DNA from: a virus
Lineage: Duplodnaviria > Caudoviricetes
Reading direction: 5' to 3' (one strand)
DNA: 64,000 bases
IMG/VR virus record: IMGVR_UViG_3300009678_000002
Location: 27,406 to 91,405 of that record
A program made the position numbers and the translations under genes. Positions 1,071-29,584 of this stretch are shown piece by piece. Positions within the stretch are counted from its first letter, which is position 1. Every line of letters starts with the position of its first letter. Below the pieces are notes generated by a model that was not told the origin of the DNA, made no database searches, and saw nothing but the letters and a program-made list of their open reading frames with translations.

Positions 1071-1507
1071 CGCGGAAGCCCGAACGTTTCGGCCGCGGGC
1101 ACCTGCAGCCGACCATCGATGTCGACGCCGAACGCGCCGGCCGGCAGCGCCTCGCGCACGCCGAACGGCTCGGTCACCGCGAGCAGGGCCTCGTATGCCT
1201 CGCGGAAGCTGGCGAACGCGGCCTCGAGCTGCTCGCGACTGAGTTCGTCAGCACCGCGGCCAGCGCGCTGCAGCGTGATCGCAGCGAGCCGAGCGCGGTG
1301 CACGGCCTGGTCGATCTTCGCGCGCGTAGCCTCGTCGATCGGCGAGCGGCTCACGAAGTCGGAGATCACGTCGACCCACGTCACCGCTTCTGCGGCGATG
1401 GACGTGATCGTCGCGATGATCGGCAGCGCGCCAGCGCACGCAGGGCCGAGCGTGAGCACGACCGCGAGCAGTGATTGAGCGATGATGGTTCGCATGTGGT
1501 TCCTCAT
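1067..1507 (-). CDS. Helical lipoprotein/membrane protein
   Basis: Hydrophobic N-terminus ending LGPA-C, then amphipathic helices. ATGA-coupled to both neighbours. Confidence 0.7.
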   Translation of the reverse strand: MRNHMRTIIAQSLLAVVLTLGPACAGALPIIATITSIAAEAVTWVDVISDFVSRSPIDEATRAKIDQAVHRARLAAITLQRAGRGADELSREQLEAAFASFREAYEALLAVTEPFGVREALPAGAFGVDIDGRLQVPAAETFGLPR

Positions 1508-4500
1508 GGGAGCGTGAAGTCCTCGCCGTAATATGCTTCGAAGTAAGCGACGGTGTCCGTAATCAACGGGTCCTCGTCGCCCACGTCAACGTCAACGTTC
1601 GCGATAAAGATCTCGCAGATCGGTCCATCCCACTGCGAGCCGATGCTCGAGCTCGCGCCGACGTACATGCGGTCAGCGTTCGCATTGAACACGATCGTGC
1701 CGGCCGTGTTGGTAGACGCTTCCCACTGGCCATTTACGGTAATGCGCCCCGAGTTGGTCGCGTCATCGCGGACCCACGCGACCACGAGCGCCCATGCGTC
1801 GTCTGCGATGTCAGTCGTCGCCGAGGGGAAGACCGCGGGCGTGAAGTTCCACCGATTCTCGAACAGATCGGTGCTCAGCTTCCGCAAGCGGGTAAGGATC
1901 CCGCTGCTGCCGCTGGTGTCGGTGATCTCCAGAACGACGTCTGTCGCGCCGCCGCCGTCCGTTTGCACGAGCGCGAAGATCACCGCCGCGTTGCTGGTCG
2001 TAAGCGCATTCCAGCCGGTCGTGAGCGCCATGTAATCGGCGTTCTGGAAGTCGAGGCAGTCGCGCCCGCCGACAGCCGCAGCCAAGACCGGCGGCTGCAG
2101 CGAGCCCGTCGCCTGCACGAGATCGAGCGCTCCGATCTTGTCGTTCCAGCTGCTCACGGGGTCGCCCGTCTTGTCGTCGCCGCGGTACCACGCGACGCCA
2201 GCCGCGCCCCAGATGTCGTCCGGCTCGGTCGTGTCGGGATCGATCACGACGTCGACCGTGTCAACGATCGTGTCGCACGTGACCACAATCGTCATGGTGA
2301 CTTCGGCCGTGTCGCAGGTGATGTCGAGCCCGTTGCAGCTCGCGGTCGACGTGCACACGCCAGCCGATTCAAACGTGCACGTGCCGTCCCCATCCGCCTC
2401 GCTCAGCACGCACGATGGCGTGGAGTCGACGTCGGTGATCGTAGTTGTCAGCTGAAACGCGACGTCCACGGTAGCGTCAGGCGCGACGCCAGCGACCACG
2501 GTCGGCGCGTTGTTGGTGAAGTCGTGCGCGACGCTGTCGGCAACGCCGTCACACGTAAGCACGAGCGTTTCCGACTGCGCCGCGTCACAAGTCACATCGA
2601 GGTCGCAGCTGGTCGCGTCGCATTCGCACTCACCAGCATCGTACTCGGCGCCGAGATCCTCAAACGTGCAGTTTGTTCCCGAGCTCTCTGTCCACTGGCA
2701 CGTGAGGCCGGTTCCGCTGCAACTGGCAGAGAGCGTGTACGCGACATCTTCGATCGGCACCGAGCTGTCCGAGCCGGCGCTGACCGATACGCCCGGGTTG
2801 ATCGCGACGATGTGCGTGTCTTCGATGGTGTCGCACTCGAGCTCGTGAGTCATGCTCACGCCGCCCGTGTCGCACGTGCTCGTGAGCGCGCGGCATGTCG
2901 CGGTTGAGGTGCACGTACCGCCGCTGCTGATCGTACAGATACCGTCAGGGTCGCCGCCGTCGACTTCCGCAAGCGTGCACGAAGGCGTGCTGTCCGGGTC
3001 GCTGATGAGAGCGTTCGTGAACGAGAACGCCGTATCCACGTCCGCGGTTGCGGGCAGGGTGCCGATGTCGACCGTGGGCGCATCGTTCGCGAAGCCGAGC
3101 ACGACCTGATCCTCTTCGCCCTCGCACGTGAGCACGAGTGTTTCGGACACGGCCGCGTCGCACGTCACGTCAATGTCGCAGCTGGTCGCATCGCACTCGC
3201 ATTCGCCCTCGCCGAGAGCCCCGGGGCCGTCCTCGAAGGTGCAGTTAGTTCCGGACAGCTCTGTCCACTGGCACGTCTCTTCCGTACCTGCACACGACGC
3301 GTTGAGCGTATAGGCAACGTCCTCGCGCGGCGCCAGGCTGTCGGAACCCGCGTTGACGCTCGAGGTCGCGAAGCCTTCCTGGATATAGGCGTTGATCGCC
3401 TGCGCCATGTAGTTCGGGTCCCACGCGGCTTTGTTCTGCGCGCGCACGGCCGCGATGAACGCAGCATCTGTACCAGCGCCGCCCAAACTCGCGTTGTACG
3501 TGCGGACCGAGCGCTCCGGGTCGCCGTATCCGGGATTGGGCTCCGATTGGCTGCCCCAGTCATAGATGACGTTCTCGTTGAGGTCGAGAACCAGCGCGCT
3601 CTGATTGTTGATCGCGACCGGATTCGCCCGGTTGCTGACCTCGTGCGCGATGATGTTGTTTTCAAAGGTGCCGCTCGTCGCGACCTCGACCCAGAAGCCG
3701 TAGCCCTTGAGCTGCGATGGCGCGATGTCGTCGCCCTCGAGCACGACGTTGTCCGAGCAGATGAACGTGCTGGTCAGGTAGCCGGCGCAGAGAATGCCGA
3801 TCGCGTTGCGCCAGCTGAAGTTTCCCGTTGCTTCACCGCCAGGCCGCAGCTGCAAGCCGTGCGAGCTCGCGCGCATGGTCAGGTTGTTGCGCACGATGAC
3901 GCCAGCCGAGGCGTACTGGATGTACATGCTGTGATTGAAGATCGTGCGCTCGGCTCCGGCGATGTCTTCATGCCAGCCGTTGTGGTCGAAGATGTTCTCC
4001 TCGACCAAGAGCGAAGCTGTCTCGCTCATGTACATGCCCTGCGAGTGCGTCGTCGTGCCGTACTGATCGAAGAACTGGTTTCGACGAATCCGGATGTTGT
4101 CGAGGCCGTACCCGTCGCTGTTCTGGAACGCGAGCGCGGTCTCGTAAAACGAGAACTTGCAATCTTCGATCAAGAGCCCGCGCGTGCCGCGTACCCACTT
4201 GATGCCGTCGACAGACGTGTTGACGTGGCCAGCGTCGAAGCCGGCGTTATCCGGGTCGCGCTTGTAGTAGTAGGCGTCCAGCCCGATGAAATGCACATAG
4301 TCCATGTGCGTGGGCGAGCTTCCGCCGCCATCGGTGCGCGTCAGCTGTCCAGACAGCTTGAACTGAGGTCGTGCGCCCGTGCCGTAGTTCGAGATCACCA
4401 TCGGCTCGGATGCGCTGCGGCCAGACTTGACCCAGCGTCCGAAGCCCTGATCGGTCCACGTGTCGCCGCGCTTGAAGTACAAGTGATCCGGGAATCCGGT

Positions 4501-5631
4501 GCGCAGCAACGCGATACCGGCAGCGACCGTCAGCTTCGGGGTTGCCGTAGTAAGACCGTCGTTCGAATCGTTGCCGTCGTCAGCGACGTAGATGAGCCGC
4601 GAGTCCGGGCTCGGCGCGATCTCGGTCCAGCCGTCCGAACTGTTGACTGTGACCGTAATCAGGTCCGAGGCGCTCAACCCGTCGCCGGGATCGCCGTCAT
4701 CGGTAGCGGTGCAGCGAAACACATACGCGCCGAGGTCGGTCAACCCGGTGATGCCGGTACTTGCTGCGGTCGAGCTCGTGATCGACGGCGTCTCGGGGCC
4801 GCTCACGAACTCCCACAGGTACTCGCAAGCGCCCTCGGCTGTTACATCGTCGTTGCAGGTGCACGCGAGCGTGGTCGTGCTTTCCGGGTCGGTGATCGTC
4901 TGATCGACGCCCGCGTCAGTCTCGGGCGCTTCGTTGCCGCCAGCTTCCAGAACCGTGACCGTGAGCGAGTCGGCGACGCTCAGCGGATCGCCGTCGTCGT
5001 CGGTAGCGGTGCACAGGAACGTGTAAACGCCTGTCTCGGTCAGGTTGCTCGCAACGGTCTGATCGTCGTCTTCCGGCGTAAGCGTCGCGGTTGCGGGTCC
5101 GCCGATCTGCTCCCACGCATAATCGCAGCTAGCCTCTGCCGTCGTCGCGTCGTTGCAGTCGCAGTCGAGGACGGCATCGTCGTCTGGCTGCGTTACCTGC
5201 TGATTGATGCCGGCGTTCGTGGCCGGTGCCGTGTTGCCGTTGCCGGCTGCGATGTCGACCTCGTCGCAGTCAAGATTGCCGTCGCTGTAGGCGCAGAGCT
5301 GTAGTGTGTACGTGTCGACCGCTCCAAAGCAGACTTCGGTGATCGGTGCGGACGAGTCCTCGAATACCACCGTTCCGGCAGGCTCGAAGGTCACGTCGAC
5401 CCACGCGCAGACCAGCCCGGGACCTCCAAGGCATACCCCCTCGAGCTGATGGCAGGTGGGCAGCGTGACAGCGTCATCGGTTCCAGCGTTCGCGAATGCC
5501 GGATTAGGCGTCGACCCGCACGTGCTCGCGACGTTCGTCGCCTGTGCGAGCGCGGTCCCGCTGTAGAGCACGGACAAAAGCGCGAGCGTCACCGCTACGC
5601 CGAGCCGGCGCATGTTGAATCTGGTCAGCAT
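1504..5631 (-). CDS. Sec-exported 1375-aa multidomain adhesin/depolymerase-like protein (PKD-like repeats, parallel beta-helix, Cys-rich Ig-like repeats, LamG-like C-terminus)
   Basis: Signal peptide MRRLGVAVTLALLSVLYSGTALA|Q. PKD-like NxAPxxxAGxDQ...WxxxxGP...GxYxFxCTATDD repeats. YVADDGNDSNDG...PKLT...FKRGDTW start of beta-helix. About 48 Cys counted. Confidence 0.85.
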   Translation of the reverse strand: MLTRFNMRRLGVAVTLALLSVLYSGTALAQATNVASTCGSTPNPAFANAGTDDAVTLPTCHQLEGVCLGGPGLVCAWVDVTFEPAGTVVFEDSSAPITEVCFGAVDTYTLQLCAYSDGNLDCDEVDIAAGNGNTAPATNAGINQQVTQPDDDAVLDCDCNDATTAEASCDYAWEQIGGPATATLTPEDDDQTVASNLTETGVYTFLCTATDDDGDPLSVADSLTVTVLEAGGNEAPETDAGVDQTITDPESTTTLACTCNDDVTAEGACEYLWEFVSGPETPSITSSTAASTGITGLTDLGAYVFRCTATDDGDPGDGLSASDLITVTVNSSDGWTEIAPSPDSRLIYVADDGNDSNDGLTTATPKLTVAAGIALLRTGFPDHLYFKRGDTWTDQGFGRWVKSGRSASEPMVISNYGTGARPQFKLSGQLTRTDGGGSSPTHMDYVHFIGLDAYYYKRDPDNAGFDAGHVNTSVDGIKWVRGTRGLLIEDCKFSFYETALAFQNSDGYGLDNIRIRRNQFFDQYGTTTHSQGMYMSETASLLVEENIFDHNGWHEDIAGAERTIFNHSMYIQYASAGVIVRNNLTMRASSHGLQLRPGGEATGNFSWRNAIGILCAGYLTSTFICSDNVVLEGDDIAPSQLKGYGFWVEVATSGTFENNIIAHEVSNRANPVAINNQSALVLDLNENVIYDWGSQSEPNPGYGDPERSVRTYNASLGGAGTDAAFIAAVRAQNKAAWDPNYMAQAINAYIQEGFATSSVNAGSDSLAPREDVAYTLNASCAGTEETCQWTELSGTNCTFEDGPGALGEGECECDATSCDIDVTCDAAVSETLVLTCEGEEDQVVLGFANDAPTVDIGTLPATADVDTAFSFTNALISDPDSTPSCTLAEVDGGDPDGICTISSGGTCTSTATCRALTSTCDTGGVSMTHELECDTIEDTHIVAINPGVSVSAGSDSSVPIEDVAYTLSASCSGTGLTCQWTESSGTNCTFEDLGAEYDAGECECDATSCDLDVTCDAAQSETLVLTCDGVADSVAHDFTNNAPTVVAGVAPDATVDVAFQLTTTITDVDSTPSCVLSEADGDGTCTFESAGVCTSTASCNGLDITCDTAEVTMTIVVTCDTIVDTVDVVIDPDTTEPDDIWGAAGVAWYRGDDKTGDPVSSWNDKIGALDLVQATGSLQPPVLAAAVGGRDCLDFQNADYMALTTGWNALTTSNAAVIFALVQTDGGGATDVVLEITDTSGSSGILTRLRKLSTDLFENRWNFTPAVFPSATTDIADDAWALVVAWVRDDATNSGRITVNGQWEASTNTAGTIVFNANADRMYVGASSSIGSQWDGPICEIFIANVDVDVGDEDPLITDTVAYFEAYYGEDFTLP
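2236..3360 (-). repeat. Internal tandem duplication (two ~185-190 aa Cys-rich units) in the 1375-aa gene
   Basis: SVNAGSDS..EDVAYTLNASC..TCQWTE.SGTNCTFED..GECECDATSCD.DVTCDAA.SETLVLTC occurs at about 2788-3360 and 2236-2787. Confidence 0.9.
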
Positions 5632-19126: not shown

Positions 19127-20284
19127 TCAGGTGGTGATGCTGGTGATCAGGAAGCCGGCGTCTGCCGCCACGATCTTGTGGTCCTCGGAGACCGCGACCT
19201 TGGCGTAGATTCCGCCGCGCTTGCCGGTCTTCGGGTCCGCCCACTGCGTGGTCAGCGGGTCGCCGTTGCTGCGGAAGGTCGTTCCGAAGTGGAGCGACCG
19301 GCGGCTCGGACGCACCGCGACCGAGAGGATGCCGAACACGTCGCCGGTGACCATGCGAGCGTATGTCGCCGTCTGACCGTCGTTGGCCGTATCCTCGCGT
19401 GCGCGGGTGACGAGCAGCTCGTCGAGACCGAACCACCCCGCGACCATCTGCGGCGTGATGAGGCCGGTCTGCACGTACTTCATGCGCTCGGCCAGCGCCG
19501 CGTTGTTGATGATGCCGCTGTTCCACACGCCGAGCGAGCAGAACGCCACCTTGCGGGTCGGCGTCTGCCCGACCCACAGCGCATCCTTCGCCGCGGTGAT
19601 GTCCGCGATGATGGTGCCGCCGGTCGAGTCGCTCCAGTTGGTCGACGCGGTGGTCGTGTTGCTGCCGTAGCTGCCCGAGGCAGCGACGATCGCGAGGATG
19701 CGCTTCTCGCGCCGGAACGCGATGCCCTCGTTGATGGCCTCGACCAGGTCGACCATTTCATCGAAAGGCGCGTCCTGGTTCTGGATCGTCTCGAGGTCGA
19801 GGAAGTTCAGGTAGCCGTAATCCTTGACCGAGTAGTTGTCGGTCGTGCGGCTCGCGTCGACTTCGTTCGGCACACTGCGCGATCCGATCTCGTCATCCGG
19901 GAACGCGAGGCGTTCACGCTTCGGATAGATCGCGTAGTAGTCCGACCGCTTCGACACCGGCACGGCCGGCATCAGCCGCTCGCCGATGTACTCGTCATTG
20001 GCGTACTGCACCGACATCTCTGCGAGCAGAGTGTCGACGTGCACGCTGACGGGGTTCACCGAGCGCACGATGAGCTCGCGGCGGTACGCCTCGCCATGCA
20101 CCTCGCAGCCGAGGCCGCGGATGAAGTCGAGGTTCTTCGCCTTGAGGATCTTCTTGCTGTCCTCGGTCATGCCCGCGAGCTGGTCGCGGACCTTGTTCAT
20201 CATCGCCTCGTATGCGAGGCCTTTCTGGGTGCGCGAAATGGGCGCTTCTCGGCCCGCGCCCCCAAGCATGTTGTGCTGGAGCAT
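19127..20284 (-). CDS. Major capsid protein (lambda gpE-like, HK97 fold)
   Basis: VDTLLAEMSVQYAN.EYIGERLMPAVPV; REKRILAIV; KIVAADAGFLIT C-terminus. Start chosen at MLQHN. Confidence 0.9.
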   Translation of the reverse strand: MLQHNMLGGAGREAPISRTQKGLAYEAMMNKVRDQLAGMTEDSKKILKAKNLDFIRGLGCEVHGEAYRRELIVRSVNPVSVHVDTLLAEMSVQYANDEYIGERLMPAVPVSKRSDYYAIYPKRERLAFPDDEIGSRSVPNEVDASRTTDNYSVKDYGYLNFLDLETIQNQDAPFDEMVDLVEAINEGIAFRREKRILAIVAASGSYGSNTTTASTNWSDSTGGTIIADITAAKDALWVGQTPTRKVAFCSLGVWNSGIINNAALAERMKYVQTGLITPQMVAGWFGLDELLVTRAREDTANDGQTATYARMVTGDVFGILSVAVRPSRRSLHFGTTFRSNGDPLTTQWADPKTGKRGGIYAKVAVSEDHKIVAADAGFLITSITT

Positions 20285-20390
20285 CTTGATTACCTTTGTT
20301 GGAATGGAGGGTTGAGAGACGAGAGCGCGCGCGCGGCGAGCGACATGCCCGCCGCGGTCATCGATCACTCGACGATCAGCCGGTCAGCGA

Positions 20391-20819
20391 TTACTCGCCG
20401 ACCGCGTGGCGTACGAGTGCGAGGCCGACGTAGTCGCCGTCGGCGCCGTTCTGCGTGAAGTAGCCGGGGCTGTTCACGTCCGTGTCCGCGCCCGTGTAGT
20501 CCGGCACCGCATCGGTCAGCCTGCCGGCCGACACGTACTTGGCCGACTGACCGCGCGTCGCGCCGCCTGCGCCGACACGGACCTTCGCGACGCCGCCGAC
20601 GAGCAGCGCCACGGAGACCTTGTCGCCCGCCGCGCCGGCGAGCTTGCCCAGCATCACGACGACGCCGATCGGCAGCGCGACCGCGCTGTCGATGCGGAGG
20701 CATTCGTGGTCCGCGTTGCCGTCCATCACGACGTCACCGAGGAACACGGTGGCCGCTGCCTCCACCGTGCGTTCCACGATGGTGCAGCCGGAGAGGATCT
20801 GATCTGCGCGAGTAGCCAT
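20391..20819 (-). CDS. Capsid decoration/cement protein (DUF2190-like)
   Basis: PIGV...AGDKVSV...G.AKVRVG...G, ADGDYV; lies between protease and MCP. Confidence 0.8.
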   Translation of the reverse strand: MATRADQILSGCTIVERTVEAAATVFLGDVVMDGNADHECLRIDSAVALPIGVVVMLGKLAGAAGDKVSVALLVGGVAKVRVGAGGATRGQSAKYVSAGRLTDAVPDYTGADTDVNSPGYFTQNGADGDYVGLALVRHAVGE

Positions 20820-20946
20820 GGTCGAAGTCCTTTCGAGGACGGAGCTCCGCGCTCACTGCCGCGCTTGCGCGCGGAGCGTTCGGTTTCCCCGCCCGAGATC
20901 TGTTTGATTGGTTAGAGGTTGTGGTGTTGAACGCGAGTGGCGACCG

Positions 20947-22158
20947 TCAGGCCGCGGCGGCCGCCTTGCGGGCGATGTCGAGCAGGTCGTCCTTGACCAC
21001 GGGCTTGTCGGACGGCGCCGGCGTCGGCTGCGTCGCGCTCGTGAGCGGATCGCCGTCGACCTTCACCTCGGTCGCGAGCGGAATGTCGGCCGTCGCGTCG
21101 AGCTTCTCGAGTGCGAACTCGAGGCCCTTCGCGCTCGCCAGCACTTCCCAGACCTCGCGCTGCGCCTTCGCGAACTTCTTGCCCTCGCGGGCGTCGAGCT
21201 CGCTCTTGGTCACGCGTGCGTCCGCTGCGGTCGCGCGCTCGGCTGCGGCCTTGGCAGCGGTCTCGTGCTGCGCGCTGAGAGCCTTCTCCGCGTTCAGCTC
21301 GGCTTCGAGCTCGGCCACGCGCTTGCTGCCTTCCGCGTGCGAGGTCTCGGCCGTCGTCGCGCGCGTCTCGAGCTGCGTGACGCGAGCGTTCAGGGTTGCG
21401 TTGTCCGACAGCGCCTTGTCATACGCCGCCTTCTCTTCTGGGGTCATGGCCATGGTGGTCTCCGTGTCGCCAGTTACGGCGGCGTTGCGAGCCGCAACGA
21501 TGCGGCTCAGGTGCTCTCGACTCCGCTCGATCGACTTCGCGACCGCTTGCGGATTGCTTCCCATCGGAACGACGCTGATCTCGTGCAGCTCGTTCGGGAA
21601 CTCTTCTGAACCGACCTCGTAGAACTTCGTGTTGCCGGCCTTGTCCTTGACGGCCGTGATCGAGCCGGCGCGAAAGCCGACGCTGACCGCGCGCAGCACG
21701 CGCTGCGTGATGCGGCGCCAGAGCTTGTCGACGAGCGGCTCCTCTTCGGCCGTGCCCTTCACGAGCTGGATCGTCGCGTGCAGCTTCTTACTCTTGACCT
21801 CGACCTTGATGGCCTTGCCGATCGGCATCAGGTCTTCGGGGTCGACCGAGCCTTCGTAGGCCCATCGCGACACGCCGAAGAGGTTGTGCGCCCAGAGGAT
21901 GACCGGGTTGAGCTCGTACCGGGTCAGGTCCCAGTGCTGGCGCACGATGTCGCCATGGCTGTCCATCACCTCGGTCGAGGCGATCACCTCGAAGGTGCGC
22001 TCCTCTTCGTTGATGACCTTGACCTCGACGTCCATGCCCATGCGCACGAAGTCGCCGCGCTCGGTGTCGTCGTCGACGCGCTCGACGTCGGTGTCGTTGT
22101 CGTCGAGCTTGAGCCGCGCCTGCTTGCCCGGTTCAGTGGTGTTCGAGTTCAGCCGCAT
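20947..22158 (-). CDS. HK97-family prohead protease with C-terminal coiled-coil scaffold
   Basis: ASTEVMDSHGDIV, NPVILWAHN, PIGK, AVSVGF, LHEISVVPMGSNPQA. GAGGAG RBS before 22158. Confidence 0.9.
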   Translation of the reverse strand: MRLNSNTTEPGKQARLKLDDNDTDVERVDDDTERGDFVRMGMDVEVKVINEEERTFEVIASTEVMDSHGDIVRQHWDLTRYELNPVILWAHNLFGVSRWAYEGSVDPEDLMPIGKAIKVEVKSKKLHATIQLVKGTAEEEPLVDKLWRRITQRVLRAVSVGFRAGSITAVKDKAGNTKFYEVGSEEFPNELHEISVVPMGSNPQAVAKSIERSREHLSRIVAARNAAVTGDTETTMAMTPEEKAAYDKALSDNATLNARVTQLETRATTAETSHAEGSKRVAELEAELNAEKALSAQHETAAKAAAERATAADARVTKSELDAREGKKFAKAQREVWEVLASAKGLEFALEKLDATADIPLATEVKVDGDPLTSATQPTPAPSDKPVVKDDLLDIARKAAAAA

Positions 22159-22339
22159 GATCGTCTCCTCGGGGTTCGGGCTGCTGCGCGCGGTCCGCAT
22201 ACGGGACGCACCCGCACATGCCAGCGCGGCGGCTGTGCTGCTTACGCAGCCAGCGAGCACGCGCGGCTTGGTCTTCCGACTCGGGCGCGCCGCGCTCGGC
22301 GGCGGCCCGGGTCGGCTTGTCTCGCGTCGTCATCGCGCC

Positions 22340-22966
22340 TTAGCTGGCAGCCTTGCGCGTGAACTCGAGGACGATGAAGTGGATGATCAGGTCGTCGTCG
22401 TCGAGCGTGCCCGCGGTCGGCGTGATCGTGAACGCGATGCCGGCCGGACCCGCGGGGAGGTTCTCGGCAGCGAGCTCGAGCTCGATGACCTGAATCGTGC
22501 GGCTCGTCGCTTCCGGGTCGCCGATCTCTGCGGTCGTGTCGCCGTAGTCCGAGTCGGCGTTGTGCAGCGCGGCCAGTTCCTGGTTGATCGCCGTGATGTC
22601 GAGCGTGGCCGTGTTGTCCGCGGTCGCGCCGACCTTGCTGCAGTACACCTTGAGCGTCGCGACCGCGGTGTTGTCGAAGGTCTCGTCGACGATCGCGCGG
22701 AACGCGATCGCCTCGGGCGTGGCGTGGTCGTTCCAGCGGACGCCGATCGTGTCTTCGCCGACGTACAAGCCCGGCGTGCCGTCGTCGCCGTCGACGAACA
22801 GGGCCATAGGCGCGCCCGTGCCGAGAATGCAGTCGGTCGGCTTGATCAGGATGCGGCCGGGGCCGTTCAGGACGTCCGCCTGCTGCTGCTGCGCCGATGC
22901 CATGCCCGCGAGGTGCGTGAGCGCGGTCGTGATCTGGTCGCGGATTTCTCCGAGGGTGAGTGACAT
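22340..22966 (-). CDS. Putative beta-rich head accessory protein
   Basis: 208 aa, acidic and beta-rich, AGGAG RBS, between portal and protease. Confidence 0.55.
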   Translation of the reverse strand: MSLTLGEIRDQITTALTHLAGMASAQQQQADVLNGPGRILIKPTDCILGTGAPMALFVDGDDGTPGLYVGEDTIGVRWNDHATPEAIAFRAIVDETFDNTAVATLKVYCSKVGATADNTATLDITAINQELAALHNADSDYGDTTAEIGDPEATSRTIQVIELELAAENLPAGPAGIAFTITPTAGTLDDDDLIIHFIVLEFTRKAAS

Positions 22967-23009: not shown

Positions 23010-24446
23010 CTACTCGGCAGCGGCCTCGCCGCCGGCCGCCGCGGCCTCGAGCAGCGACAGGTCCTCTTCGATCTCGACTCCGAACCCGTCGGCGATCTCC
23101 TGCAGGTTCTTGACGCGGTAGCCGCCGGTCAGGAACGCGCGCGACATGAACGCCAGCGTTCGCGCGTCCTCGGCGACCATCGAGTTCTCGTTCACGAGTT
23201 CCTCGTCTTCGCCCGGCTGCGGCATGCCGACCTGGTCACGCACCCACGGCGCCGGGATCTTCAGGCCCGCAATGCGCAGCGTGTTGATGGCGGTCGCGAA
23301 CTCGCTGATGTCCGTGCCCTCGTCGGTCTGGAACACTGCCGCCGGGCACCGGATGTCGGCGCCCACGTTCAGCGCGACCGCGGGCATGAACATGCAATAG
23401 CGAAGGCCGGCTGCGATCGCGCGGCAGTCCTCTTCGCCGATGTCGGTGCGGACCTGGTCGCGCACCACTGCGCCGCGCTGGTCGCCGTGCTCGGTGCTCT
23501 CGGTGGTCGTGGTCTGGCCGAGGATGGCCTTGCTCATCTCGCGGCCGAGCGTGTCGAACAGCTCGCGGTGCGTGCTCGGGCTCGGCGCGCTGCCCTTCGG
23601 GTAGTGCACATCGATCTGCGTGTCGGTGTCGCAGACGCCGATGCCCTCGGTGCCGACCCGCTCGAGCATGGTGACGAGCTTGTCGATGTCGTCGATGTGC
23701 GTGCCGGGCTTGTACTTGCCGATCCGCCACGGCTTCCACGCAATCTCGGCGAGCGCGATCCAGTCACGCAGACCCCAGTTGCGGAGCAGCGCCGACCAGA
23801 CGAGCAGGCGCGCGAGGCCTTCGCGCGCAGGGACGTCGCCAACGATGCGGCGCTGGATCTGGATGATGCGGCCGGGGAACTCTGCGAGCAGGTCCACGCC
23901 GACGGTGTCGCCGGTTGTCTTGCGGTAGCGCAGCGAGCCGTCCGCGAGCGCGAAGATGAAGTCGCGCGCGTGCACGGGCTTGGCGCGGTACGGCAGCAGC
24001 AGGCCTTCGCTCGTGCGCTTCCACAGCAGCTCGGACGTTGCGTGCCCGAACAGAAAGCCGTTCATGTGCGAGATGAGCTCGGGCCAGTTCTCGAAGTCGT
24101 CCCGGATGCGGCGGCAGAGGTCGGCTGCCTCCTGCTCCTTTGGGCTCGCGTCCTTCGGAACCACGAACTCGAGATCGACCAGAGCGGGCGCGCGCTCGCG
24201 TGTGCTGAGCACGCCCTGAAGGTGGCCGTCTTTCTGACGGCTCTCGTTCATCAGGTCGACGAGCCGGTCAGGCTGGCCGCCATCGGCAGCGCGGATGATC
24301 TCGCTTACGCCCAGAGGGGAGAGGCCGCCGCCGATGCGCTGGAACTGCTCCCATAGCGGCTTGGCGTGGATGATCGGAGTGCTGGTCGGTTCGACCTGCG
24401 CAGGCCCGAATGCCTGCTTGATCCACGCGAGGAGGTTGAACGCCAT
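23010..24446 (-). CDS. Portal protein (Mu gp29/DUF935 family)
   Basis: KDGHLQGVLSTR, FGHATSELLW, PWRIGKY, REMSKAILGQTTTT. Confidence 0.92.
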   Translation of the reverse strand: MAFNLLAWIKQAFGPAQVEPTSTPIIHAKPLWEQFQRIGGGLSPLGVSEIIRAADGGQPDRLVDLMNESRQKDGHLQGVLSTRERAPALVDLEFVVPKDASPKEQEAADLCRRIRDDFENWPELISHMNGFLFGHATSELLWKRTSEGLLLPYRAKPVHARDFIFALADGSLRYRKTTGDTVGVDLLAEFPGRIIQIQRRIVGDVPAREGLARLLVWSALLRNWGLRDWIALAEIAWKPWRIGKYKPGTHIDDIDKLVTMLERVGTEGIGVCDTDTQIDVHYPKGSAPSPSTHRELFDTLGREMSKAILGQTTTTESTEHGDQRGAVVRDQVRTDIGEEDCRAIAAGLRYCMFMPAVALNVGADIRCPAAVFQTDEGTDISEFATAINTLRIAGLKIPAPWVRDQVGMPQPGEDEELVNENSMVAEDARTLAFMSRAFLTGGYRVKNLQEIADGFGVEIEEDLSLLEAAAAGGEAAAE

Positions 24447-24457
24447 GGGTGCTCGCT

Positions 24458-25024
24458 TCAGCCGAAGCCTCGGCCGCGCGAGTTGCCCCAGCGGCCGGTG
24501 GTGATTCGAGGGAGCTGCGTGCGCGGCAGCGGTTGAACCGCCGCCGGCGCGGCCCCGGGCGCCGGAAGGAATGACGACGCGTCGGCGGCCGCGCCGGCTG
24601 GCGCAGGCACGCGCGAGCTCGGCCTCGCCTGGACGACGGCGCCTGCCCCGTTGGCGATGAACAGCACGCCGCGGGCACGCAGGTCAGGCTCGATCTCGCG
24701 CAGCACGGTCTCGGCGCCCTTCCCCATCGTGCGCTGACCGGGCGTCAGCTCGACGAACGGGCTCGAGAGCCAGAACAGTTTCTCGCAGGGCTTGTCCGGC
24801 CCGGCGGCGAGCGCCTTGCGTAGCGCTCGGATGGCGGCGACGCCTTCGACGATCCACGGACCGCGGCGCTCGAGCATCCACTCGGCGGCCTTCGCGCTCG
24901 CCTCGGACCATCCCATCGAGATCAGGTTGTCGGTGCGGAGCAGCTCGTAGCCGAGCTCGGTGCGTAGCTGGTCGGCGAGCGTCGACTTGCCGGCCCGCGG
25001 TATGCCGGCGATCACGATGCGCAT
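24458..25024 (-). CDS. P-loop nucleotide kinase-like protein with TerL-like C-terminal tail
   Basis: MRIVIAGIPRAGKST Walker A, WIVEG, Ala/Pro linker, ends RWGNSRGRGFG. Confidence 0.8.
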   Translation of the reverse strand: MRIVIAGIPRAGKSTLADQLRTELGYELLRTDNLISMGWSEASAKAAEWMLERRGPWIVEGVAAIRALRKALAAGPDKPCEKLFWLSSPFVELTPGQRTMGKGAETVLREIEPDLRARGVLFIANGAGAVVQARPSSRVPAPAGAAADASSFLPAPGAAPAAVQPLPRTQLPRITTGRWGNSRGRGFG

Positions 25025-25028
25025 CGGG

Positions 25029-25457
25029 TCACCGATTCTTGGCTGGCTTCAGCTTCGGCCGCGGGCCGGGTGGGTCGTCGGTGCGGCCGAGCATCGGGTT
25101 CGCGAACGCCTTCGCCGGCCGCTCCACACTCGGCGGCCTCTCCTGCCTCACCCTCGGCGTGTGCACCGGCTTGGGGGTCCTGCCGCCCTTGCCGCGCAGC
25201 TTCGCCCGGTGCGCTTCGACCGCTGCCCTGCGAGCAGCCAGCCATGCGCGTGCACCCTCGGGCGTGTCCGCACCCTGCCGTGCGAGCTCGGCCGCTGCGT
25301 GCGCGGCGGCTTTCTGCATCACTGCGATCGTGCGCGGTCTCATGCGTTCACCCGTGTTCGTCGCATCCGTCCCGGGTGCCGAGCAGCCCGGGGCGTGGCT
25401 GGCCATGTCACAGCCCTTTGGACTCGCTGATCCGGAGCTTCCGCTCCCAGGACGCAT
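25029..25457 (-). CDS. Basic hypothetical protein (start uncertain)
   Basis: Fills the gap between TerL and the kinase; Arg/Pro/Ala-rich. Confidence 0.5.
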   Translation of the reverse strand: MRPGSGSSGSASPKGCDMASHAPGCSAPGTDATNTGERMRPRTIAVMQKAAAHAAAELARQGADTPEGARAWLAARRAAVEAHRAKLRGKGGRTPKPVHTPRVRQERPPSVERPAKAFANPMLGRTDDPPGPRPKLKPAKNR

Positions 25458-25466
25458 GCGACGAAC

Positions 25467-27023
25467 TCAACCGAACCCGCGACCGCGGAACCCATCCCAG
25501 CGCGAGCCCTCGCGCCGCGGCAGCGCGACGATCTTCGTGCGCGGTGCCTGGTAGACCGCGAGCTGCAGCGCGTCGAACCTGTCCGGCGAGCGCTTGATGC
25601 GAGCCTTGATGTCGAGCTTGCTCTCGACCTGGTAGCGGCCCTGCGTGTCGAACTTGTACCGCGGCGCGACGAGCTCGCCCTCGAGCTCGGGGTCCGGGTG
25701 AATCGTGCCGCCCTCGGCGAGCCAGTCGCGCACCGCGAAGTGCAGCTGCGCGCGGAGGTTGTGGTAGCCGGGGCCGGTTGTGCTGTCGGCCGAGCGTGAG
25801 CTCTTGCAGTCGACCGCGGTCATCTCGTTACTGCGGCAGAGGATGGCGAACACGCCAGCGCCGACGCCGATCGTGTCGATGTTGACGACCGGCACTTCGT
25901 CCTTCGCGCGCAGCTCGCGCACGAGCTCGAGCACCTGGCCGGCGATGTCGACCGAGTCCATCGAGTGGAGCACGATCGGGTGATAGGTCTTCTTGCCGCG
26001 GCGCGGCTGGATGACCGTGTCGTCGTCGCCGAACTCCGCGACGTCGACACCGATCTGCAGCTCGCCCTCGTACGTGGCCGCGTCCCAGTCGCGGCGCGCT
26101 GCCTCGAGCAGCCGCAGCGGGATGACCGCGTCGCTCGCCTGCTCGGGGAAGTCTCCGCGAACGCGGACCGCGTACAGCGATGAGGCCGTGCCCCAGACGC
26201 GCGCGCGCTCGGCTACCCACTCCGGCGTGGCCAGGCCCGGGATCGCGTTGTCGTTGGCTGGGGTGTGCTCGCTCGAGATGTGCAGGCAGTGGAAGACGTG
26301 GCGCTCGCTGTGGAACGCGTCGAAGAACTTGCCGCTGGTCTGGGTCGGGTTGCCGAATAGCAGCAGGTAGGCGCCGCCGGCGCGGTTGCCCTCGATGGCC
26401 TCGAAGATCGGCTCGTCGACGCCGGAGGCCTCGTCGACGATGTACAGCACGTGCTGGCCGGAGATGCCCGAGAACCGGTCGGCGTCGTCGGTGCTGAAGC
26501 CCAGGATCTCGCGGCCGTCGTCGGCGATGATGCCGGTCGACGGGTCGCGGCTCGGGTCGGGCCCGAGGTCTCGCCCCTTCACTCGAGCTCGCCGCCGAGC
26601 GATGCGGTACAGCCGCCGCACCTCGCGCCACAGAACGATCTTGACCTGCCGCGCGGTGGGTGCGGTAAGCACTGCTCGAGCCGCGGGGCGCGTGGCGAAC
26701 CACCAGATGGCGACGCCCGCTGCGATCGTGGACTTGCCGACCTTGTGGCCGCTGCGGACCGCGATGGCCTTGTGCTCGGGCAGCGCGCGCAGGATGTCGA
26801 TCTGCCCGGTCTGGCCGGGCATGGCCGCGGCCCAGGGCTCGATGCCGAGGATCTCGCGAAAGAAATCGATCGGCCGGTCCGCGTACTCGGGCAGCGGCGG
26901 CGGCGCGACTACGTGGTCGCAGTCGTCGGTGTCAGTGGACTTCGCTGTGATCTTCTGGAACTTCTGCGCCAGCCACTGCTTCGTCACCTTGCGCCTTCGC
27001 GATGGCGTGGACGAGGTCTGCAT
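25467..27023 (-). CDS. terL: Terminase large subunit
   Basis: VRSGHKVGKST, YIVDEASG, FGNPT, GVDVAEFGDD, SPDRFDA. Confidence 0.95.
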   Translation of the reverse strand: MQTSSTPSRRRKVTKQWLAQKFQKITAKSTDTDDCDHVVAPPPLPEYADRPIDFFREILGIEPWAAAMPGQTGQIDILRALPEHKAIAVRSGHKVGKSTIAAGVAIWWFATRPAARAVLTAPTARQVKIVLWREVRRLYRIARRRARVKGRDLGPDPSRDPSTGIIADDGREILGFSTDDADRFSGISGQHVLYIVDEASGVDEPIFEAIEGNRAGGAYLLLFGNPTQTSGKFFDAFHSERHVFHCLHISSEHTPANDNAIPGLATPEWVAERARVWGTASSLYAVRVRGDFPEQASDAVIPLRLLEAARRDWDAATYEGELQIGVDVAEFGDDDTVIQPRRGKKTYHPIVLHSMDSVDIAGQVLELVRELRAKDEVPVVNIDTIGVGAGVFAILCRSNEMTAVDCKSSRSADSTTGPGYHNLRAQLHFAVRDWLAEGGTIHPDPELEGELVAPRYKFDTQGRYQVESKLDIKARIKRSPDRFDALQLAVYQAPRTKIVALPRREGSRWDGFRGRGFG

Positions 27024-27564
27024 ACGACTCCGGCTTCATGAACGCTTCGACCATGTCGAGCAGGTCCTGCAGCTCGGCGAGCACGCGCACGTCCAGGCGG
27101 TCGCCGAACATCCCGTGCAGGTCCTTGCCGAGCGCGATCCACGCCGCATTCGAAGCACCGAACTGCTCGGCGGCCGCGGCCTTGCGCGCGTTACTCTTGA
27201 GCGCGCGCGTGATTTCAGTGCGCGAGACCTTCGCCTCTTCGTCGAGCCGACGGTCGAACGCCTCGATCGCTGCCTTCACGCGCGGCTTCTGCCGCAGCTT
27301 GTGACCGATCGAGATGCTGCTCGCGTGGTTGGCCTTGCTGCCAGCGCGCCGGACCGCGAGCGATGCATCTCGGCACTGCACGAACTCGCGCACGAACGCG
27401 CGCTCGAACAGCGTCAGGTCCTCGGCGACCGGCGCAGCGGTGCATTCGTGCGCCTCGCGCAAGAACTCCGCGTCGTCCTCGCTGCCGCGCTCCGCCTGCT
27501 CCTGGGCGTTGCGCAGGAACGCCAGGACATGCGCGCGGGCTTCGCTGACGGGGGCCGTGGCCAT
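26932..27564 (-). CDS. terS: Terminase small subunit
   Basis: AFVREFV...DASLAVRRAG...LRQKPRVKAAI HTH pattern; overlaps the TerL start. Confidence 0.85.
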   Translation of the reverse strand: MATAPVSEARAHVLAFLRNAQEQAERGSEDDAEFLREAHECTAAPVAEDLTLFERAFVREFVQCRDASLAVRRAGSKANHASSISIGHKLRQKPRVKAAIEAFDRRLDEEAKVSRTEITRALKSNARKAAAAEQFGASNAAWIALGKDLHGMFGDRLDVRVLAELQDLLDMVEAFMKPESYADLVHAIAKAQGDEAVAGAEVPEDHSEVH

Positions 27565-27643
27565 GGGGTGCCTCTGGGGAAACCCCGCCAAAACCAGGGG
27601 GATAACGCGGGTTTACGGGGGTGCCGAAGATTCTTTAGAACAC

Positions 27644-27697
27644 CGCTTGCAACAGTCTGCATGCTCGTGCATGGTGTTCGCCATGGACACGACGCAA
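27644..27697 (+). promoter_or_regulatory. Promoter/start cassette, copy 1 (leaderless)
   Basis: TTGCAA-N17-CATGGT-N7-ATG; 42/54 nt identical to 30168-30221. Confidence 0.7.
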
Positions 27698-28549
27698 GCG
27701 AATCTATTCGGCATCGAGATCGAGACGGTCGGCATCGACCGCGACGCAATCGCGCGGGCCATCCAGACCGTCGTAGGCGGGACGCTCGATGCGTACGCCC
27801 CCACGGTGCGCATGGCAGACGGGCGCGAATGGAAGGTGGTCAGCGATGGCTCGCTGGGCTACGGGCCGCATGGCGAGATCGTCTCCCCCAAGCTGCGCTA
27901 CGACGAGCTCGACACGCTGCAGAGCATCGTTCGCGCGGTGCGGCGCGCGGGAGCGCGGGTCGACGATAAATGCGGGATCCATGTCCACGTCGATGGCTCG
28001 CGCTTCGATGTCCGCGGGCTGCTCAACCTCGTAAACATCGTCCACAAGAACGAGCGGCTCATCGAGCGCGCGCTCGGGGTCGCGCCGGATCGGCTGGCGC
28101 GATACACGCGCGCGCTGCGCGCCGAGTTCATCACGCGGCTTGAGCAGCGCCGCCCGCGCACGATGTCGGAGTTCCAGCAGGCTTGGTATGGCAACGCGGG
28201 CGCGCCGAGCCGCTACGACCACACGCGCTACCACGGGCTCAACCTCAACTCATTCTTCTTTCGCGGCACGGTCGAGTTCCGCTACTTCAACGGCTCGCTG
28301 CACGCGGGCGAGATCAAGACCTACGTACAATTCTGCCTCGCGCTGGTGCATCGCGCGCAGACCACGAAGGCCGCGAGCAAGGCTCGCCGCGTAACCCAGA
28401 ACGACAAATGGGCGGTCCGGGTCTGGCTGCTCAAGCTCGGGATGATCGGCGACGAGTTCAAGACCGCGCGCTTCCACATGATGAAGCGCCTCGATGGCGA
28501 CAGCCGCTACGCTGCCGCGCAGACCGCGAGCGATGCGGTGGCGTCATGA
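27683..28549 (+). CDS. Putative amidoligase (Amidoligase_2 / COOH-NH2 ligase type 2)
   Basis: FGIEIET, WKVVSDGSL, EIVSPKL, CGIHVHV, RYHGLN, TVEFRYFNGSL. Confidence 0.92.
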   Translation: MDTTQANLFGIEIETVGIDRDAIARAIQTVVGGTLDAYAPTVRMADGREWKVVSDGSLGYGPHGEIVSPKLRYDELDTLQSIVRAVRRAGARVDDKCGIHVHVDGSRFDVRGLLNLVNIVHKNERLIERALGVAPDRLARYTRALRAEFITRLEQRRPRTMSEFQQAWYGNAGAPSRYDHTRYHGLNLNSFFFRGTVEFRYFNGSLHAGEIKTYVQFCLALVHRAQTTKAASKARRVTQNDKWAVRVWLLKLGMIGDEFKTARFHMMKRLDGDSRYAAAQTASDAVAS

Positions 28550-28752
28550 GACGCCTCGAAGAACAAACCACGTACGACGGCTGGCTGCGCGATGAATGGC
28601 AGCCCGCAATGGGAGAGCACCCGCGGACCGCTGGCATGCGCGACGAGGACGTCACGCGGTACGTGCGCGAGTGGAACAAGAAGGCGAAGGCCGAGGGCTG
28701 CAACACGCGCCTGCGCAGCGTCGAGGTCGACGAGTACGGAGACGAGTCATGA
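28546..28752 (+). CDS. Small hypothetical protein
   Basis: ATGA-coupled on both sides; 68 aa. Confidence 0.65.
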   Translation: MRRLEEQTTYDGWLRDEWQPAMGEHPRTAGMRDEDVTRYVREWNKKAKAEGCNTRLRSVEVDEYGDES

Positions 28753-29195
28753 CCCCGCTTCTCTATTTTGCCTACGGATCGAACCTCGACGAGGCCCAGA
28801 TGCGCGCGCGCTGCCCGAGCGCGCGGCTCATCGGGGTCGCCGAGCTCGCCAACCACGCGCTCTGCTTCGCGGGCTTCAGCCCAGCATGGGGCGGCGCGGT
28901 CGCGTCGATCACGCATCGACCGGGGTTCTACACGCCGGGGGTTCTCTATTCGATGAGCGCCGCCGACATGCGCAAGCTCGACGCCTTCGAAGGTCATCCG
29001 TTCGTCTACGAGCGTACGCGCAAGCGCATCACGGTCGCGAGCGGGCGCCACGTCTACGCGTTCACGTACGTGCATCGCGGCGGACGGTTCAGCATCGGGC
29101 CCGGCCCGAAGTATCTCCGCGTGATCGAGCGCGCCTACAAGCGCCACGGGTTCGCCAAGCAGCCGCTGACCATCGCGGCCTGGGGGCTGACATGA
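28749..29195 (+). CDS. Gamma-glutamylcyclotransferase (AIG2-like), copy A
   Basis: YFAYGSNL...MRARCP, LDAFEGHPFVYER. Confidence 0.9.
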   Translation: MTPLLYFAYGSNLDEAQMRARCPSARLIGVAELANHALCFAGFSPAWGGAVASITHRPGFYTPGVLYSMSAADMRKLDAFEGHPFVYERTRKRITVASGRHVYAFTYVHRGGRFSIGPGPKYLRVIERAYKRHGFAKQPLTIAAWGLT

Positions 29196-29584
29196 GAGAG
29201 GGAATCACACGCGTATTCGTCTACGGCTCGCTGCTGCGGGGCATGGGAAACCACGGCTTCCTCGAGCGCTCGCGGTTCGTTCGCAGCGCGCGCACCGCGC
29301 TCGGCTACCGCATGTATTCGCTCGGCGCGTTCCCCGGCGTCGCTCGGGACGTCGGCGGCCAGGTGCTCGGCGAGGTGTTCGACGTCGACGGCGCTACGCT
29401 CGCGCGGCTCGACCGGCTCGAGGGGCATCCTCACTTCTACATGCGCTCGGTGATCGCGCTGGAGGATGGCGAGCGCGTCGAGACCTACTTGATCCCGCTC
29501 GAGACCGTTGCGCCGCATCGCGCGGTCGTGGCTACAGGTGACTGGCGCGCGCACTGCGCGACCTTGGAGGAGGACCGAACATGA
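29192..29584 (+). CDS. Gamma-glutamylamine cyclotransferase (GGACT-like), copy B
   Basis: VFVYGSLLRG..NH, GEVFDV, LDRLEGHPHFY. Confidence 0.9.
   Translation: MREGITRVFVYGSLLRGMGNHGFLERSRFVRSARTALGYRMYSLGAFPGVARDVGGQVLGEVFDVDGATLARLDRLEGHPHFYMRSVIALEDGERVETYLIPLETVAPHRAVVATGDWRAHCATLEEDRT

Follow-up and report, generated by a model that had tools for sequence, protein, structure and literature searches.

A small P-loop kinase-fold protein encoded between the terminase and portal genes of an uncultured tailed phage ends in the same motif as the large terminase

The uncultured virus (Duplodnaviria; Caudoviricetes) represented by IMG/VR record IMGVR_UViG_3300009678_000002 has a sequence of 91,405 bp, which was classed as complete by CheckV. 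The 64,000-nucleotide stretch of this record that was analysed here (positions 27406-91405; G000:C1) is referred to as the window. Its minus strand carries a standard head and packaging block, in which the gene of the small terminase subunit (TerS) is followed by those of the large terminase subunit (TerL), a P-loop protein, the portal and the capsid (Table 1). The P-loop protein is the subject of this analysis: it stands alone, being fused to neither MuF nor portal, its stop codon lies 11 nt before the start codon of the portal gene, and it consists of a kinase-fold core, an Ala/Pro-rich linker and a C-terminal tail that is shared with TerL.

Over their last 18 residues, TerL and the P-loop protein are identical at eleven positions (L-P-R, R-W and R-G-R-G-F-G), and in both proteins the motif consists of R-W, three to six residues, G-R-G-F-G and the stop. 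Seven of these eleven residues are encoded by different codons in the two genes, the last 22 codons of which share 35 of 66 nucleotides. The two C-termini, the eleven matches and the seven codon differences had been given in an original prediction made from the sequence alone, and a codon-level recheck found them to be exact. When the window and the complete genome were scanned in all six frames, no third open reading frame (ORF) with this ending was identified; since only TerL and the P-loop protein end in the motif genome-wide, chance is not a realistic explanation of their similarity.

The Walker A motif of the P-loop protein (G7-x4-G12-K13-[ST], with S14 at the last position) is nearly invariant among 44 homologues, in which D32, S43, E60, G61, R66, R69, K70 and Q97 are invariant and R118, like R66 and R69, is conserved. 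Foldseek analysis of its AlphaFold model gave shikimate and adenylate kinases as the best matches, at 1e-6 (shikimate kinase, 1.6e-6). VIA-align gave Z scores of about 10 to gluconate kinase, AK6/hCINAP and adenylate kinase, the best hit being gluconate kinase (Z 10.2, 122 residues aligned, rmsd 2.9). Adenylate kinases were found among the fold matches at Z 8-10, level with many other kinases, and the NCBIfam adk model matched the protein weakly (E = 0.045, 13 bits against a cut-off of 168). Two Pfam families, AAA_18 (24.0 bits, cut-off 29.4) and AAA_33 (23.2 bits, cut-off 27), matched only its first 40-46 residues and below threshold, and neither Pfam nor the fold comparison showed a match to Zeta_toxin. 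Judged from the model, the core appears to possess a generic P-loop kinase fold of the nucleotide or small-molecule type. The designation P-loop kinase given at the outset agrees with the fold and the Walker A motif, but the protein falls below the curated Pfam cut-offs. The linker is composed to 75% of A, P, S, T, G and Q, which together with its low model confidence (Table 1) bears out the Ala/Pro linker described originally, and it ranges in length from 24 to 44 residues among eight homologues.

Eleven versions of the tail-bearing kinase were identified (the window, L001, L002, L006, L007, L168, L169, L170, L256, P0209 and P0207; P0207 is the protein encoded by L170, and L002 also represents L003-L005). 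The kinase gene lies directly past terL in all eleven, with the gene of a Mu-family portal next to it wherever the contig reaches that far. In a tree of 86 family members calculated from core columns only, the eight tail-bearing kinases included form one clade (SH-aLRT 99), and a single state change suffices to explain the presence of the tail on this tree; the linker and tail thus arose a single time and were retained as the core diverged to identities of 44-62% among the tail-bearing kinases. Mean pairwise identity is 68% for the last 12 residues and 61% for the core, as against 25% for the linker (22% gapped positions), and seven tail residues are invariant in the eight aligned kinases (P172, R178, W179, G184, G186, F187 and G188). 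A conserved tail behind a drifting linker suggests a short linear motif on a flexible tether rather than a decaying duplication. The original prediction had named tailless kinase homologues beside terL as an observation that would count against it; the kinases encoded between terL and a portal of the window type were all found to be tailed, while their tailless relatives adjoin other terminase and portal families. When linker and tail alone (residues 149-188) were searched against a collection of 5.8 billion proteins, only 11 candidates were returned, and the sole match was the query itself.

These comparisons bear on the idea that the resemblance is a neutral leftover, produced by duplication or gene conversion of the 3' end of terL onto the neighbouring gene. 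The two gene ends are indeed about 1 kb apart or less, and in L001 all six shared residues before R-W are encoded by the same codons; in the window these codons are mostly different. We regard this origin as highly improbable, as the tail was gained once and then retained across kinases of such modest core identity while the linker decayed, and as the shared residues of the window are encoded largely by different codons. The selection on the peptide that was originally proposed is instead borne out by the retention of the tail in the eleven kinases of this one clade, by its higher identity compared with the linker, and by its occurrence in four unrelated lineages of TerL, there only beside the portal and head module of the window type.

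The motif ending is found on many homologues of TerL. The four lineages were identified by a search anchored on the portal and not on TerL; it covered 71 loci from metagenomes and 6 from genomes, the portals of which share 32-67% identity with that of the window. The large ORFs with the motif ending in these loci form four clusters that BLAST does not link, all of them confirmed as large terminases by PHROG (one PHROG 2-like, one PHROG 38/979-like and two more distant groups), and an iterated TerL HMM did not join the four. With TerL ORFs counted once per distinct ending, 35 of the 46 that occur beside a portal of the window-type family possess the strict motif, six possess a Y-R-x-G...R-G-F(G) variant and five have neither. 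The strict motif was found in none of 97 TerL-like ORFs from loci without this portal family, where the variant was not counted. The presence of the portal family in a locus thus predicts the tail of TerL. Furthermore, the TerL lineage has been swapped within the kinase clade, the TerLs of the window, L001 and L002 being unlinked by BLAST to those of L006, L007, L168, L169 and L256, and both types retain the tail. The tail is therefore a property of the head module and of no one terminase lineage. It forms a short C-terminal peptide past the nuclease domain, comprising the last 12-18 residues of the TerL of the window, a protein with more than 1,300 homologues, and of the TerLs of the four lineages.

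Three further ORFs with this ending have unusual structures. One, located just upstream of a portal 60% identical to that of the window (L237:800-1258), possesses a TerL-type N-F-T-G...H-D-D-Q-V-D nuclease segment that is preceded by a stretch resembling the C-terminal portion of an NrdR/ATP-cone protein; it has no PHROG match, on a contig of only 1.5 kb. The other two are tail-bearing TerLs of unusual length, 844-884 residues (L184:1669-4323 and L239:2058-4592), and the extra N-terminal region of the former matches primase/DnaC-like P-loop PHROGs. This region could be a fusion or an intein-like insertion. Looser endings are seen among the TerLs of cultured Mu-family phages, with Mu ending in ...F-E-R-G-G-W, DMS3 in ...G-R-F-G-G-A-W, JD024 in ...G-R-M-G-G-D-W, Mushu in ...F-R-R-G-A-Y and a Ralstonia phage in ...G-G-N-W. 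Their common theme is glycine together with an aromatic residue at or near the end, outside of which fall the TerL endings of SuMu and one Vibrio phage.

It might be supposed that such an end does not dock on a protein at all, but is an Arg/Gly nucleic-acid-binding end, a C-terminal degron or a sequence for translational coupling or ribosome binding of the next gene. The R-G-R-G-F-G ending does resemble RG/RGG boxes, the start codon of the portal gene closely follows the stop codon of the kinase gene, and GAGG occurs within the tail codons. These proposals are nonetheless very improbable: the residues of the tail are kept through synonymous codon changes, some TerLs retain it even though the next gene is 1-2.7 kb away, its invariant tryptophan and terminal aromatic residue fit a pocket anchor, and it follows the head module rather than DNA or the TerL lineage.

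The genes for portal, protease/scaffold, cement and capsid occur together in nearly all related loci, and because tail and head module co-occur, the receptor of the tail is expected to be a protein of the head module. TerS was considered as the receptor and is an unlikely candidate, since the tail is retained beyond the closest relatives, the only ones in which TerS of the window type is detectable. The original prediction had cited docking of TerL C-termini on the portal in lambda and T3, which is borne out by published work: TerL of phage P22 that lacks residues 483-499 no longer binds the procapsid form of the portal, and equivalent findings exist for T3 and lambda (PMC5290284). Docking on another protein of the head module, whether the capsid hexons round the portal vertex, the protease/scaffold or the cement protein, would agree with the fact that all of these genes travel with the tail, and an explicitly speculative model of phage P74-26 has the five TerL tails attached to the five-fold hexons that surround the portal, and not to the portal itself (PMC12407722). 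We consider such a receptor unlikely, given the binding of the TerL C-terminus to the portal in the three phages above, the invariable position of the kinase gene next to that of the portal, and a homologue in which kinase and portal are fused.

This homologue belongs to a much larger family. When 1.84 billion cluster representatives were searched with a profile, 1,321 members were identified at E <= 0.001, of which only four carry the tail. Tailless members are typically 120-145 residues in length, and the Pfam families identified among 65 ORFs adjoining them on IMG/VR contigs are nearly all those of portal (Phage_portal_3, Portal_Mu, Phage_portal and DUF4055), large terminase (Terminase_3 and Terminase_6) and Phage_Mu_F. 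Among 41 longer representatives, twelve are fused to Phage_Mu_F (in either order), about three to TerS-type domains, and one each to the C-terminus of Portal_Mu, to a Terminase_6C nuclease domain and to DUF2213. The Portal_Mu fusion is joined through an acidic, Ala/Pro-rich linker, and it and one of the MuF fusions were checked on their contigs, where both are single ORFs in the terL-portal region. Because members are fused to portal-vertex and terminase proteins, the family is expected, by Rosetta-stone logic, to act physically at the packaging machine. The TerL-like tail would then be one of several ways of keeping the kinase there.

Two of the fusions can be described individually. P0259, a metagenome protein of 450 amino acids, possesses a small kinase domain (residues 98-223) followed by the Terminase_6C nuclease domain (residues 245-389), and seems to be a large terminase in which a kinase-fold domain has taken the place of the ATPase domain. 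The portal fusion (L254:1733-3628) is a Mu-family portal with a C-terminal kinase domain, its gene being flanked by those of a Terminase_6 TerL and a Mu-like protease. The C-terminus of the portal normally faces the capsid's inside, and this fusion would place twelve kinase domains inside the head.

Fusions of this kind also favour another reading, namely that the kinase is virion cargo or an early effector injected into the host, and that the tail serves for loading it into the particle and not for packaging. Jamet et al. reportedly described MuF polymorphic toxins in 2017. The fusions to MuF, to the portal C-terminus and to DUF2213 all suit this reading, and Iyer et al. (2017) took MuF and portal fusions, a zeta-toxin-like P-loop kinase included, to be effectors that are packaged and injected (PMC5512222). 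It does not, however, explain the fusions to TerS or to the TerL nuclease domain or the copying of a terminase tail by the window kinase, because the terminase is not a component of virions, and the protein lacks a Zeta_toxin match, having its best fold matches in gluconate, adenylate and shikimate kinases. We hold this cargo role to be quite improbable.

Docking of the kinase at the terminase site would proceed as follows. The protein of the window is predicted to be a 188-residue P-loop enzyme in which a floppy linker of 24-44 residues leads to a short linear motif, [ST/G]-R-W followed by three to six residues and G-R-G-F-G, that is the same as the putative docking tail of TerL. As the two motifs are the same, the kinase would most likely bind the receptor site of TerL at the portal vertex of the procapsid. 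The portal ring has twelve subunits and TerL is a pentamer. Spare portal sites might allow the kinase to be placed next to the motor, and not only to compete with it. On the available sequence evidence it is rather probable that the tethered docking peptide brings a kinase-fold enzyme to the terminase receptor site at the portal vertex. The receptor there would be the portal, and the kinase may take part in packaging, for instance through local nucleotide turnover or the control of motor docking. The roles suggested originally, in nucleotide recycling or as a competitor or timer of packaging, are putative. Recruitment to the packaging vertex, as first proposed, thus has indirect support from the portal-binding C-termini of the P22, T3 and lambda TerLs and from the fusions of kinase homologues to MuF, portal, TerS and the TerL nuclease domain, but the portal could not be separated from capsid, scaffold and cement. 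A role as a DNA-base-modification kinase at the portal, resembling the 5-hydroxymethyluracil DNA kinases, was considered and rejected: the complete genome contains no thymidylate-synthase-like gene, and tblastn gave no match to cultured phages with such pathways.

A shared receptor might also be reflected within genomes. Within a clade, TerL and kinase resemble each other in the stretch that precedes R-W, which contains L-P-R in one clade and R-[DE]-P in a second, and these clade-matched stretches fit a receptor common to both proteins. Co-variation of the two tails, which had been suggested as a check, was detected in a gapped permutation test of this stretch (p = 0.016, not corrected for phylogeny, a result that reflects two or three clades and not seven independent pairs).

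Several points weigh against recruitment of the kinase to the portal. In an ungapped within-genome test of the ten residues before R-W, co-variation was not significant (p = 0.34), and the similarity specific to each clade could have arisen by occasional gene conversion between the gene ends, as the identical codons of L001 would allow. Co-inheritance of portal, scaffold, cement and capsid cannot single out the portal as the receptor, and the P74-26 model places the TerL tails elsewhere. Tailless members make up most of the family (some 1,300 representatives at 50% identity), so that tethering by the tail is a solution specific to one clade. Finally, the members of the family do not all share one site of action: C-terminal fusions to MuF or portal would place the kinase inside the capsid, whereas the TerL-like tail would place it outside.

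The coordinates of the packaging genes and of other features of the window are given in Table 1. Between terL and the kinase gene lies a doubtful ORF of 142 codons with a GC3 of 0.79, compared with 0.88-0.92 in the adjoining genes; the coordinates of the original prediction (24458-25520) include it. It forms an insert of about 430 nt that is missing from relatives L001 and L002, where the kinase gene begins 15-92 nt past terL, and that could be a recent insertion or non-coding DNA. A profile match (8e-68) relates the portal to the solved portals 8rka and 9khx, which match this portal family at about 1e-66 to 1e-68. No close relative was found among cultured phages, in which TerL is at most 35% and the portal at most 31% identical to those of the window and the kinase has one weak match. 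The record of 91,405 bp, which is classed as linear and 100% complete, begins and ends with the same 20 bases, perhaps an overlap left by the assembly of a circular or circularly permuted genome. Divergent from the terminase genes is an Amidoligase_2 gene, which is followed by two genes for GGACT/AIG2-like gamma-glutamyl cyclotransferases. The same cluster was identified at this place in L001 and L002, there with an additional ASCH-domain gene, and it has the appearance of a conserved system for peptide or amide-bond modification beside the packaging genes (27314-29584 in the window). The 1,375-residue protein encoded elsewhere in the window is likely to be a tailspike or tail fibre that possesses a domain of depolymerase type.

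Table 1. Positions of the packaging, head and other features discussed in the text, numbered from the first letter of the window
Feature	Position	Strand	Remarks
1,375-residue protein	1504-5631	-	PKD-like (K319L-like) and right-handed beta-helix domains
Co-inherited head module besides portal (alternative receptors)	19127..22966	-	orf208, protease/scaffold, cement, capsid
Major capsid protein	19127-20368	-	Head module; weak Phage_capsid_4 match
Cement protein	20391-20819	-	Pfam Phage_cement match
Protease/scaffold	20947-22260	-	Head module; weak Peptidase_S78 match
orf208, no assigned function	22340-22966	-	Head module
Mu-family portal	23010..24446	-	Pfam Portal_Mu 3e-58
P-loop protein, 188 aa	24458..25024	-	Core, linker and tail
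Kinase C-terminal tail, residues 171-188 (18 codons and stop)	24458..24514	-	L-P-R-x4-G-R-W-x3-R-G-R-G-F-G; stop 24458-24460
Disordered Ala/Pro linker, residues 126-170	24515..24649	-	AlphaFold pLDDT 54-75
P-loop kinase-fold core, residues 1-125	24650..25024	-	Walker A; AlphaFold pLDDT 96-98
Doubtful ORF, 142 codons	25029..25457	-	No Pfam, PHROG or NCBIfam match
TerL, large terminase subunit, 518 aa	25467..27023	-	PHROG 2 and PHROG 5902, 1e-32 to 5e-34
TerL C-terminal tail (18 codons and stop)	25467..25523	-	L-P-R-x4-S-R-W-x3-R-G-R-G-F-G; stop 25467-25469
TerS, small terminase subunit	26932..27591	-	Pfam Terminase_2 5e-07; PHROG 51
Amidoligase_2	27314-28549	+	2.5e-54
GGACT/AIG2-like gamma-glutamyl cyclotransferase	28596-29195	+	
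GGACT/AIG2-like gamma-glutamyl cyclotransferase	29135-29584	+	

To our knowledge, what is known of the recognition of its own procapsid by a terminase comes solely from deletion genetics in a handful of model phages, and we know of no sequence code defined for it. Among the papers searched there was no description of the motif or of a non-terminase protein that carries a terminase tail. Docking tails of terminases are known as a class; what is new is a clear and conserved motif, together with a second enzyme that carries it. The motif marks terminase lineages that work with one portal and head family and defines a peptide of about 12 residues, and a large kinase-fold family is tied to packaging genes by gene order and domain fusions. 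A wider proposal is put forward tentatively, as one that may well not hold: that the small P-loop kinase-fold enzyme is a widespread and unrecognised accessory of the packaging machines of tailed phages (some 1,300 clusters at 50% identity, whose genes nearly always adjoin terL, portal or MuF), held at the portal vertex interchangeably by fusion to MuF, portal, TerS or the TerL nuclease or by mimicry of the terminase tail, and acting on nucleotides or on the DNA being packaged, with R-W...R-G-F-G as the first readable terminase-portal docking code for Mu-family portals. If true, packaging motors would have an optional third enzymatic partner, and mimicry of short linear motifs would be shown to be one means by which phages extend an assembly machine. 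The looser endings in the cultured phages Mu, DMS3 and JD024, together with the solved portals, make the idea testable at the bench.

Several known systems resemble parts of this arrangement. With the small P-loop kinases (gluconate kinase, 1knq; AK6/hCINAP, 3iij; adenylate and shikimate kinases) the core shares the Walker A motif and a five-stranded kinase fold, at Z 8-10 over 110-130 residues, a Foldseek E value of 1e-6 and 13-20% identity. Unlike them, it has only 125 residues and no recognisable LID insert, and falls below the Pfam and NCBIfam cut-offs. The terminases of P22 (gp2, residues 483-499), lambda (gpA) and T3 (gp19) likewise possess a short, flexible peptide at the extreme C-terminus, which in these phages is required for portal binding (PMC5290284). 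The tail of the window occupies the same position and is specific to one portal and head family, but its R-W...G-R-G-F-G sequence is unrelated to the basic, proline-rich stretch of P22, and it occurs also on a second, non-terminase enzyme, for which the papers searched gave no precedent. Enzymes fused to MuF or portal provide another parallel, being accessory enzymes attached to a portal-vertex protein, and homologues of the window kinase are fused in the same manner; the window kinase differs from them in standing alone, in carrying a linear motif copied from TerL in place of a covalent connection, and in not being recognisably zeta-toxin-like. In lambda, gpW and gpFI are small accessory proteins at the terminase-portal interface, and the gene of gpW lies between A and B. 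These two proteins are comparable to the window kinase in that a small gene of the terL-portal region gives a product at the terminase site on the portal, but they have no relation to it in sequence or fold, are not NTPases and carry no terminase tail.

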